A stretch of 31,983 nucleotides of DNA from an uncultured Candidatus Saccharibacteria bacterium. GTDB taxonomy: Bacteria; Patescibacteriota; Minisyncoccia; Phycocordibacterales; Zambryskibacteraceae. Shown here piece by piece: positions 30,434 to 31,983 of the stretch (position 1 is its first letter; each line of letters opens with the position of its first letter). The stretch covers positions 1-31,983 of the forward strand of contig CAZAZG010000002.1 in assembly GCA_964489565.1 (NCBI GenBank), given 5' to 3'. A program made the position numbers and the translations under genes. Below the pieces are notes generated by a model. That model was not told the origin of the DNA and made no database searches. It saw nothing but the letters and a program-made list of their open reading frames with translations.

Positions 30434-31312
30434 CTACGATAGCATCTGCTCAGCCTCTATAAATTCCTCAATCTCACCCTCGAGGACCGCATCGATATTT
30501 GCAGTTTCCACATTGGTGCGATGGTCTTTGACCATCTTGTATGGGTGCATGACATAGGAACGGATCTGGTTGCCCCATTCAATTTGAGTGCTCTTTGAAA
30601 TATACATACCCTTTTCTTTTGCAATCCGATCTTCTTCCATTCTCTTATAAATTTTACCGGTCAGAATTGCGAGAGCCTTTTCTTTATTCTGTGCCTGAGA
30701 ACGCTCTGACGTGACATGTGCTGAAAGATTTGTGGGTATGTGCACTATGCGCACTGCAGTCTCGCGCTTGTTTACGTTTTGCCCACCCGGACCTCCCGAG
30801 CGCGAGAGCTCTACGCGGAGGTCAGTTTCGAGGATATCAATCACTCCCGTTTTTTCAAACTTTGGTATCACCTCGACGAGTGAAAATGAGGTGTGGCGGA
30901 GCTGTTTTGCATTAAATGGTGAGATGCGAACAAGGCGGTGAACTCCGGACTCATTTTTGAGTGTACCGTATACTCTCTTGCCGTGAATTTCAATGGTGAC
31001 ATTTCGGTATCCCCCATGATCATTCGTGTGCTCGTGAATGAGCGAGAATGACCAGTTTTTATTCTCGATGTATTTGATGTACATAGTGAGCAAGATGCTC
31101 GAAAAATCTTCCGCATCATCTCCTCCGGCACCAGAGAAAATCGTCATAATAGCATCTCCTTTGTCGTACTCTCCAACTCCACTTTGCTCATCTTTCAGTC
31201 TTTGGATTTCTCTGATGGTTGCCTGTGCTTTATCTTTGTCTTGCCAAAAATCCGCAGACATCATATCCGATTCAAGCTCTTCTATTTTCTTTTGCTTAGC
31301 TTCTTTGTCCAT
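30434..31312 (-). CDS. prfB: Peptide chain release factor 2, shortened N-terminal domain
   Basis: ESGVHRLVRISPF (SPF), GGPGGQNVNK (GGQ), WGNQIRSY; ATG at 31312 lies 8 nt after TATAAT. Confidence 0.93.
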   Translation of the reverse strand: MDKEAKQKKIEELESDMMSADFWQDKDKAQATIREIQRLKDEQSGVGEYDKGDAIMTIFSGAGGDDAEDFSSILLTMYIKYIENKNWSFSLIHEHTNDHGGYRNVTIEIHGKRVYGTLKNESGVHRLVRISPFNAKQLRHTSFSLVEVIPKFEKTGVIDILETDLRVELSRSGGPGGQNVNKRETAVRIVHIPTNLSAHVTSERSQAQNKEKALAILTGKIYKRMEEDRIAKEKGMYISKSTQIEWGNQIRSYVMHPYKMVKDHRTNVETANIDAVLEGEIEEFIEAEQMLS

Positions 31313-31345
31313 GTGGTGCAATTATAGTCTATTAGCCCATTCGGG

Positions 31346-31385
31346 CAAAAGGAAAGGCGTTCAGACAAAAATCTGCCTGAACGCC
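31346..31385 (-). terminator. Intrinsic terminator upstream of the prfB promoter
   Basis: GGCGTTCAG/CTGAACGCC stem (31356-31385) followed by TTTCCTTTT on the minus strand. Confidence 0.7.
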
Positions 31386-31880
31386 CTACTGTAGGAGACT
31401 GCGAGGTATCGGGTTGCAGACACCTCCTCAAACAGTGATTCCCTTTGTTTAGAGCGGAACCTACTCCATCTGTTTGAAACTGCATGGTGTAAGAGGCAAA
31501 GCCGACGTATACACCATCAGTATGCCCGCTGTACCTTGCGGTGTTTTGCAAGGCATGAGTCAGTTGCATACCCAAACAGTAACTCCTTGTCTGATGGAGC
31601 GTGATTTTCAACCTTTCGGTCGTTATCACCGGCAATTTCGAATGTAGTCGATAGTGGTAGAGGGTGTCTAATCCTCACATAGCGACCATGCGATGTGCTT
31701 CGCACGAAACAACCTCAGACAAGAGCCCTGCACTGTAGATCGCGGATCTACATGAAAGGCGGGGCAACTCCTTTCCCAATCGCACCCGTCATAGCCAGGC
31801 TACGGGGTATGTACTATCACCCTATTGCCTATAGCTGGTAGGTGTGGAGCACGAGGGTCAATCCTCACACTCCACGACTG
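31346..31880 (-). ncRNA. Candidate large structured ncRNA (~530 nt), family not recognised
   Basis: TTGACT-16-TAATCT promoter-like site (31890-31917), many local and long-range helices, terminal terminator, no credible ORF. Confidence 0.55.
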
Positions 31881-31923
31881 GTACTTTTGAGATTACTCCT
31901 TAAAATTTTTAAGTCAAATGATG

Positions 31924-31983
31924 AGCCACCTCGCAGGATCGAACTGCGGACCCCGTCTTTACGAAAGACGTGCTCTGCCAACT
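31924..31983 (-). tRNA. tRNA-Thr(CGT), 5' end cut by window edge
   Basis: Anticodon arm CGTCT-TTCGTAA-AGACG, T-arm CGCAG-TTCGATC-CTGCG, acceptor 3' strand AGGTGGC. Confidence 0.9.

Follow-up and report, generated by a model that had tools for sequence, protein, structure and literature searches.

The stretch analysed here (the window) comprises 31,983 nt, positions 1 to 31,983 of the forward strand of contig CAZAZG010000002.1 (assembly GCA_964489565.1), from an uncultured Candidatus Saccharibacteria bacterium placed by GTDB in the family Zambryskibacteraceae of the order Phycocordibacterales (phylum Patescibacteriota). Its genome, of 0.68 Mb in 88 contigs, is designated G000; relatives are numbered G001, G002 and so on, extracted loci carry L-numbers and contigs C-numbers. 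Near the end of the window, the start codon of prfB (ATG at 31312) and the tRNA-Thr(CGT) gene are separated by a gap in which the longest open reading frame (ORF) has 117 aa and no Pfam match. Complete tRNA-Thr(GGT) and tRNA-Thr(CGT) genes were found upstream in an identical metagenome contig (L077). The gap contains a predicted non-coding RNA (ncRNA), single-copy in the G000 genome, that carries modules of 16S ribosomal RNA (rRNA) and, among them, a conserved copy of its 790 loop; we call it mini-16S RNA. The features of the locus are listed in Table 1.

Table 1. Features predicted between prfB and tRNA-Thr(CGT) in the window (promoter and terminator scans, Rfam matches, predicted structures and comparison with the G001 locus).
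Feature	Coordinates	Strand	Evidence and remarks
tRNA-Thr(CGT), 3' two-thirds	31924..31983	minus	Cut by window end; Rfam tRNA 30.6 bits, 5'-truncated
Promoter-like TTGACT-16 nt-TAATCT	31890..31917	minus	Read from sequence; identical in G001
Predicted ncRNA, ~535 nt (mini-16S RNA)	31346..31884	minus	z = -7.4; no Rfam match
5' hairpin GUGGAGUGUGAGG-AUUGAC-CCUCGUGCUCCAC	31844..31875	minus	Minimum free energy and alifold structures
Helix-11-like element CACCUACCAGCUA...GGCUAUGACGGGUG	31783..31844	minus	Homology to G001/G002 segments scored as 16S
Conserved hairpin UGUAGAUC-CGC-GAUCUACA	31734..31752	minus	Kept in G001 via one-sided compatible changes
Helix-24-like arm, outer helix GGUCG/CGACU	31646..31688	minus	Outer helix covaries with G001
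790-loop hairpin GAGG-AUUAGACAC-CCUC	31660-31676	minus	Inside helix-24-like arm; model R1 27.7 bits, E 7e-4 per genome
Helix-27-like hairpin GGUGAUAACG-ACC-GAAA-GGU-UGAAAAUCACG	31600..31630	minus	14 nt 93% identical to family 16S positions 839-852
Lineage-specific variable region	31468..31598	minus	Largely absent from G001
Conserved 3' domain, helix GAGGAGGUGUC/GAUACCUC	31388..31467	minus	With terminator, 96.6% identical to G001 (118 aligned nt)
Intrinsic terminator, 15-bp stem + 4-nt loop + U-tract	31346..31387 (stem-loop 31387-31354)	minus	Terminator scan; identical in G001
prfB promoter TTGCCC-16-TATAAT (31348-31321) and ATG	31310..31348	minus	Scan, 10/12 matches

Judging from these signals, the mini-16S RNA is predicted to be an independently transcribed, terminator-bounded unit of the minus strand running from 31884 to 31346. 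A sequence-only reading of this DNA, made without database searches, had proposed both a promoter and a terminator for it. The terminator was recovered, with its U-tract, by the scan. The promoter fared less well: the site is present and identical in G001, but its -10 hexamer matches the consensus at only 3/6 positions and the site was absent from the list of the consensus promoter scan. At the same place, other members of the RNA group described below have TTGATT-16-TATAAT or TAAAAT-type sites. The promoter of prfB itself lies directly past the terminator, which indicates that the RNA is a separate unit and not the prfB leader; for the same reason a cis-regulatory leader of the ribosomal-protein type was rejected. 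The -10 of the prfB promoter ends 8 nt ahead of the ATG. When the tRNA-Thr-to-prfB gap was extracted from 30 relatives, either TATAAT-N6-8-ATG or a tRNA-Thr 3' end abutting the prfB ATG was found to be conserved. In most of them the tRNA-Thr(CGT) 3' end abuts or overlaps the start codon, so that tRNA processing would make the mRNA 5' end. The prfB mRNA looks to be of the leaderless type. The listed TTG (31321) is probably not the true start of prfB, for which the ATG at 31312 is suitable; the gene, encoding RF2, is a single ORF of about 292 aa without a +1 frameshift site. A phage match was sought for the mini-16S RNA locus and none was found.

The minimum free energy of the minus strand of the region was -214 kcal/mol, compared with -168 ± 6 in dinucleotide shuffles (z = -7.4), and the plus strand of the same region gave z = -5.3. 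The gene order tRNA-Thr, RNA, prfB, ftsE is the same in G001, a member of the same genus. Collection of homologues had been suggested by the sequence-only reading, and BLAST or nhmmer with the G000 RNA across 60 relatives yielded this same-genus homologue and no other match. Both RNAs are 65% identical over the 5' 317 aligned nt and 96.6% over the 3' 118 nt, with indels of 1, 2, 3, 4, 9, 12 and 78 nt that break any frame, so that the RNA should hold no reading frame. A conserved protein frame, named beforehand as fatal to an RNA gene at this place, was thus not found: coding of a protein was rejected on the lack of Pfam hits, the lack of a conserved ORF and the indels, and a 20-codon small ORF behind GGAGG in the 3' domain was discarded since it meets a stop after 5 codons in G001. 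The fourfold-degenerate sites of prfB are only 39% identical between G000 and G001, that is, saturated, and comparison with the 65-97% identity of the RNA points to strong purifying selection on the latter. RNAalifold predicted 125 pairs for the G000/G001 pair, 13 with changes on both sides and 0 broken, a result that is supportive, not conclusive, as it comes from two sequences. Taken together, these data uphold the structured minus-strand ncRNA that the sequence-only reading had placed in the ORF-free interval 31346-31917. All the helices it had listed were present on the minus strand (31586-94/31715-23, 31484-91/31510-17, 31734-41/31745-52, 31534-39/31548-53 and 31403-10/31419-26), as were a GAAA hairpin at about 31615 and a compound hairpin at 31844-75. 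The 9-bp long-range helix and the 31484/31510 helix fall in the segment that G001 lacks and are consequently lineage-specific, not conserved.

Known RNA classes were then considered. A cmscan search against Rfam 15, run over the window at the gathering threshold and over 31200-31983 at E <= 10, gave no match but the tRNA and a hit to drz-agam-1 (E 1.3) attributable to chance, and the scan of 17 related loci gave nothing besides tRNA and one small-subunit (SSU) rRNA fragment. This agrees with the suggestion of the sequence-only reading that the RNA could be an undescribed one of the candidate phyla radiation (CPR). Its other suggestion, membership of the GOLLD or ROOL class, had to be abandoned: neither RF01998 nor RF03087 matched even at E <= 10. 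That reading had seen no signatures of RNase P RNA or of the end of transfer-messenger RNA (tmRNA), and the region is neither RNase P RNA (RF00010) nor tmRNA (RF00023), because both genes are elsewhere in the genome, at C20:7527-7917 (103 bits) and C37:5316-5723 (84 bits), respectively. Signal recognition particle (SRP) RNA (RF00169, RF01854) and 6S RNA (RF00013) were also rejected since they had no match in the region; moreover, an RNA found in only about 12% of the family genomes is incompatible with the essential SRP RNA. Regarding SRP RNA itself, RF00169 detected it in 0 of 41 genomes (G000 and 40 relatives), and neither RF01854 nor the 6S model found anything in G000; in this order SRP RNA may have diverged too far for the Rfam models to recognise it.

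The origin of the RNA became apparent from the relatives. ORF-poor, GC-rich inserts were found in the gap of G001, G002, G006, G024 and G015, and later of G014, G025 and G027. They share with G000 only short universal 16S motifs, namely AGCUAGUUGGUGAGGUAAUGGCUUACCAAGGCGAUGACGG of helix 11 (h11), GGAUUAGAUACCC of the 790 loop in helix 24 (h24) and GUACGUCCGCAAGGUCGAAACU of helix 27 (h27), and these stand in the same order as in 16S rRNA. In the G001 locus the Infernal SSU model RF00177 has local matches at its positions 237-283 (E 2e-7), 773-789 and 881-899, and in the G002 locus one at positions 237-283 (E 3e-9). With an nhmmer profile made from four 16S genes of the family, matches were obtained for G002 (3e-13) and G001 (7e-9), both in h11 segments, for G014 (6e-5) and, in h27, for G006 (1.5e-3); the h27 versions of G001 and G006 match both RF00177 positions 881-899 and the h27 region of the profile. 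The G160 member, which belongs to a different family of the order, combines some 240 nt of 16S 5' domain (nhmmer 7e-11; 62 bits with the Rfam SSU model) with the 790 hairpin downstream. Complete 16S genes are present on other contigs of G001, G002 and G006. In the G000 assembly the interior of the real 16S gene is missing, and only the first 48 nt, at the end of C29 (7594-7641), and the last 33 nt, on C12 (15980-16012), were recovered. For the group as a whole, colinear h11, h24 and h27 similarity is significant; the G000 RNA reaches it only through the G001 alignment and its R1 score (see below), its assignment resting on that alignment, on exact short matches (GGCTATGACG; 14 nt of h27 at 93%) and on the hairpin model. 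These comparisons show the predicted RNA to be, as far as its sequence can tell, the descendant of a 16S gene copy that lost most of its length and acquired lineage-specific domains. This derivation, the 790-loop hairpin and the h11- and h27-like modules were missed by the sequence-only reading. A bona fide 16S gene was rejected, since RF00177 has no match in G000, the homologues give only three short local hits and full genes exist elsewhere. Three look-alikes in G000 were also put aside as out of order or not significant (GUCUGCAAC versus h42, GGUGUAUACGU versus the 1370 region and GAUACCUC versus the anti-Shine-Dalgarno sequence).

As regards the separate parts of the G000 RNA, GGGGAGUGACCCUC hairpins akin to its 5' hairpin occur in G001 and G024, and the G001 counterpart was aligned by nhmmer to 16S just 5' of h11. 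The h11-like element contains a 10-mer (GGCTATGACG) identical to the family 16S, and its apical part has been replaced in G000; the motif of the h11 3' strand, GGCNAUGACGG, appears in about 8 of the 18 members. The stem of the h27-like hairpin covaries between G000 and G001 (A-U to U-A) and the loop stays GNRA. In the variable region G001 has gaps of 12 and 78 nt with a stretch between them that is 51% identical; this region carries two of the listed helices, 31484/31510 and 31534/31548, as well as one side of the long-range 9-bp helix. In the 3' domain, the GGAGGUG/(GAU)ACCUC helix resembles a Shine-Dalgarno/anti-Shine-Dalgarno duplex in a lineage whose 16S lacks the anti-Shine-Dalgarno, be it by mimicry or by coincidence.

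Some other particularities of the gap were observed in relatives. L016 (G024) shows at 989-1050 rearranged h11 strands, with GGCUAUGACGG ahead of CUACCAGCUA. In genus g5 (L016 of G024 and L015 of G020) the gap has a small conserved ORF of about 90-100 aa without obvious family, and in G020 the ORF is present and the 790 hairpin was not found. Finally, L032 (G015) has at 1022-1110 a partial second copy of tRNA-Thr(CGT), between the complete tRNA and the mini-16S RNA, that consists of the anticodon arm, the T arm and the acceptor 3' strand and may be the trace of a duplication or integration.

Seven 790-loop hairpins could be aligned without gaps. They have an invariant loop, A(U/G)UAGA(U/C)AC, two G-C closing pairs and a stem that is different in every genome; 93% of the cells are paired, compensatory changes affect 4 of 6 pairs and 0 of 500 shuffles reached the observed score. 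A covariance model, R1, was built from the hairpin and used for searches. In 86 genomes of the family, the training loci scored 27.7-32 bits and real 16S genes about 21 bits, and three new non-rRNA loci were detected, two at the tRNA-Thr/prfB site (G027 and G025) and one elsewhere (G102). A sample of 150 genomes of the order gave eight further non-rRNA loci, including G048 and G177, upstream of prfB in two other families, G123, between two tRNA-Thr genes, and G234, a small RNA of about 60 nt in which the hairpin itself is the terminator. The same search in 150 genomes of the rest of the phylum produced one real 16S gene, one intra-ORF hit and two intergenic hits, near chance expectation. The loci thus total 18 (10 in the 86 family genomes and 8 in the order sample), with R1 scores of 24-32 bits overall. 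Among the 18 hairpins, all eight stem pairs show compensatory changes, 83% of the cells are paired compared with 40-53% in slid controls, and 0 of 500 shuffles reached the score, figures that are somewhat inflated by selection bias because 11 of the 18 were found by a model that rewards pairing. Several G-U pairs restrict the fold to the 16S-sense strand and hence indicate an RNA-level structure.

An exact 12-mer pattern search of the 86 family genomes is support independent of R1. Nearly all its occurrences outside 16S genes and ORFs fold as hairpins, the exception being the GGATTAGACACC hit of G073, which forms none; no hairpin is formed by the occurrences within ORFs. Further GGATTAGACACC hits, from G001:C35, G018, G004 and G091, were discarded as chance since they are inside long ORFs. 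Scans of the collection with a combined 790 and h27 pattern found G001, G006 and a twin contig of G000, the rest being real 16S genes apart from L052 and L068, which are hits by chance. L070 was also rejected as a mimic, for it is a divergent but real SSU rRNA, and in G049 and G129 the incomplete 16S sequences belong to real genes interrupted by the end of a contig. Altogether, the part of the predicted RNA that selection appears to hold constant is shown by the alignments to be the 790-loop hairpin: its invariant loop reads AUUAGAYAC and is closed by two G-C pairs, and its stem covaries freely.

The colinearity of the modules with 16S could also be that of a non-functional, decaying second 16S gene in which universal motifs survive by chance or gene conversion. 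In favour of such a remnant, the subset of modules that is kept differs between lineages (h5-h12 and 790 in G160; 790, h27 and h28 in G006; only 790 in G234), and the G001 RNA has an 18-nt identity to its own 16S. However, neutral sites are saturated (39%) and the RNA is nevertheless 65-97% identical, its helices being kept by compensatory changes, and the hairpin stems differ from 16S and covary. In addition, all the mimics have GACGG where the real 16S of the family has GACGT, which argues against ongoing gene conversion, and the RNAs do not keep other 16S segments that are just as universal, such as the 530 loop and the 1400 region. Promoters and terminators are maintained, and genomes of about 0.6 Mb rarely keep junk. 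A dead remnant is for these reasons highly improbable.

The members range from 60 to 540 nt, that of G000 being the largest, with h11-, h24- and h27-like arms and a nearly invariant 3' domain, and the small ones of about 60-150 nt (G234, G102 and G123) are little but the hairpin. This size distribution bears on whether the RNA could have a role unrelated to ribosome mimicry, for instance as a scaffold or a catalyst, in which the 16S modules would be reused folding units. Most of the 535 nt of the G000 RNA are not 16S-like (the 97% conserved 3' domain, the 31734-52 hairpin and the variable region) and large RNAs beside tRNAs are a known pattern. Nevertheless, the 18 loci have one element in common, namely the hairpin of the invariant 790 loop, and the three small members consist of little else, so that we consider an unrelated role unlikely.

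With respect to genomic position, 11 of the 18 members are directly upstream of prfB, in families f1, f13 and f93, and a twelfth (G014) is one gene removed. Together with the strong terminator ahead of prfB and the single prfB ORF without frameshift, this would suit a cis-acting leader or attenuator, in which a factor bound to the 16S-like leader would control termination at 31354-31387 and hence RF2 synthesis, replacing the +1 frameshift autoregulation. Nevertheless, prfB has its own promoter, giving a leaderless mRNA with or without the RNA, and in most relatives the fusion of the tRNA-Thr 3' end to the prfB ATG leaves no room for a leader. The other members adjoin NUDIX, trmD-like or glyS-like genes or lie between two tRNAs, and we know of no contact of RF2 with the 790 loop. 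We regard attenuation of prfB as very unlikely.

Two further observations concern the real 16S genes. The real 16S of the family, read at its 3' end in L043-L046 (G002, G001, G007 and G006, four genomes of three genera), finishes in ...GUGGAGUAAUUCAAUU or ...GGUAGCGGAAGCUGCUCGUGGAGUAAUUCAAUU and lacks the anti-Shine-Dalgarno CCUCC. In addition, insertions of 0.6-1.2 kb interrupt the 790 loop of the real 16S gene, after U788 or U793, in nine or more genomes of the order (L098-L105 and L110); the 5' exon ends in U and the insertion in G, as in group I introns, and several contain LAGLIDADG ORFs. The 790 loop as a multi-site intron hotspot in this order may deserve its own study. CPR rRNA introns are a documented class, with homing endonucleases and ectopic transposition (PMC11270868). 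The hairpin RNAs could thus be tied to the 790-loop introns, either as a copy of the ligated-exon junction serving as sink or target for intron RNA (by internal guide pairing or reverse splicing) or as the trace of an ectopic transposition, and their enrichment in the order relative to the rest of the phylum would fit. However, the 790 intron was found in 0 of the 7 hairpin-bearing genomes with assembled 16S, a count too small to be significant; the G000 assembly yielded no LAGLIDADG gene; the sequences between the modules of the RNAs have no similarity to the 790-loop introns; and the variation of the stems makes a DNA-level endonuclease site unlikely. On balance, a link to the introns seems quite unlikely.

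On the ribosome, the partners of the 790 loop are IF3, the 50S subunit in bridge B2b (h27 taking part in B2c), the P/E-site tRNA and platform proteins. At the 18 loci a conserved structural copy of this rRNA ligand site is under selection, as judged from the shuffling test (0/500). We propose, with moderate confidence, that the mini-16S RNA may work in trans, as a mimic or decoy directed at some ligand of the 790 loop in the 30S subunit. It would act as a molecular mimic of the 30S platform, presenting the 790 loop, and in larger members also h27 and h11, to a factor that normally reads them on the small subunit. The candidate ligands would be IF3, the H67-H69 surface of the 50S subunit that forms bridges B2b and B2c, a platform ribosomal protein or an assembly factor, and binding would titrate or dock the factor. 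The real 16S of the family has no anti-Shine-Dalgarno tail and the genes of the family look leaderless; in this context the most attractive target, although this is speculation, would be the tuning of IF3 or subunit joining and hence of leaderless initiation. In its specific form, that in Paceibacteria without an anti-Shine-Dalgarno these 16S offcuts titrate IF3 or cap the 50S B2b/B2c surface and so regulate subunit joining and leaderless initiation, forming a novel class of regulatory RNAs derived from rRNA, the proposal is possible but doubtful. No enrichment of complementary GUAUCUAAU targets was detected in G000. The phyletic pattern of bS21 (weak Pfam hits only, in 20 of 86 genomes and in none of the RNA-bearing genera) was too weak for use.

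Besides the selection bias already mentioned, several observations weigh against this interpretation. The G000 RNA has no significant match to 16S models with either Infernal or nhmmer. Outside the 16S-like modules the members are unalignable, and with nothing in common there, recurrent capture instead of one family is possible. The patchy distribution of the RNA, in about 5-12% of the genomes, indicates that it is dispensable. Recent recombination, instead of constraint, could account for the 97% identity of the 3' domain with its terminator loop, and in view of the weak -10 of the G000 promoter the RNA could alternatively be co-transcribed with the tRNAs. Finally, IF3 and the 50S subunit normally contact a composite surface, not an isolated loop.

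The mini-16S RNA was compared with known systems. Its loop AUUAGAUAC and the GG/CC closing pairs match those of the Escherichia coli 790 hairpin, CAGGAUUAGAUACCCUG (PMC4613259). The h27-like form, UACG-NCC-GNRA-GGN-NGAAA, the h11 3' strand and the colinearity of the modules are also those of 16S. Unlike 16S, it is a separate gene of 60-540 nt that lacks about 1000 nt of the 16S sequence, the decoding centre, 530 loop and 3' end among them; its stems are longer and lineage-specific, and real 16S genes coexist with it. OLE RNA, of about 600 nt, is likewise large, structured and lineage-restricted and contains a substructure copying 16S: its stem P6 mimics the Shine-Dalgarno/anti-Shine-Dalgarno duplex and binds bS21, thereby recruiting a ribosome component (PMC12054373), a precedent for rRNA mimicry in a large ncRNA. 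There is no sequence or Rfam relationship between them, however; OLE mimics the duplex of the 3' tail whereas the mini-16S RNA copies the 790 loop, h27 and h11, and OLE is not 16S-derived as a whole and occurs in Bacillota, not in CPR. Autoregulatory mRNA leaders of ribosomal proteins also mimic rRNA (Meyer 2018, as referred to in PMC8058203). They carry, outside the ribosome, a copy of an rRNA protein-binding site that binds a ribosomal component, but they are short cis elements in the 5' untranslated regions of ribosomal protein operons, whereas the mini-16S RNA is predicted to stand alone, with its own terminator, beside prfB and tRNA genes, and in a lineage with apparently leaderless mRNAs. 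It resembles GOLLD, ROOL and raiA in being large, densely structured and, often, beside tRNA genes, but it matches none of their Rfam models at E <= 10, and to our knowledge none of the three is rRNA-derived. With 6S RNA, which sequesters RNA polymerase by mimicking an open promoter, the likeness would be the proposed titration of a core machine by a stable RNA imitating a nucleic-acid ligand; target and fold are different, RF00013 found nothing in G000 and the analogy is functional only.

So far, rRNA mimicry is known from short leader elements that act in cis on mRNAs and from a single stem of OLE RNA, and a free-standing, whittled-down 16S gene kept for one universal loop has no description in Rfam 15 or in the literature searched. 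For annotators and primer designers it is of relevance that in these lineages sites for 806R-type 16S primers (GGATTAGATACCC) are not confined to rRNA genes, and the defined 17-nt hairpin and its natural carriers of 60-540 nt are usable as ligand bait. If the decoy interpretation is true, duplication and erosion of an rRNA gene would be a new route to regulatory RNAs, and these minimal-genome bacteria would have a new control of translation initiation or subunit association.

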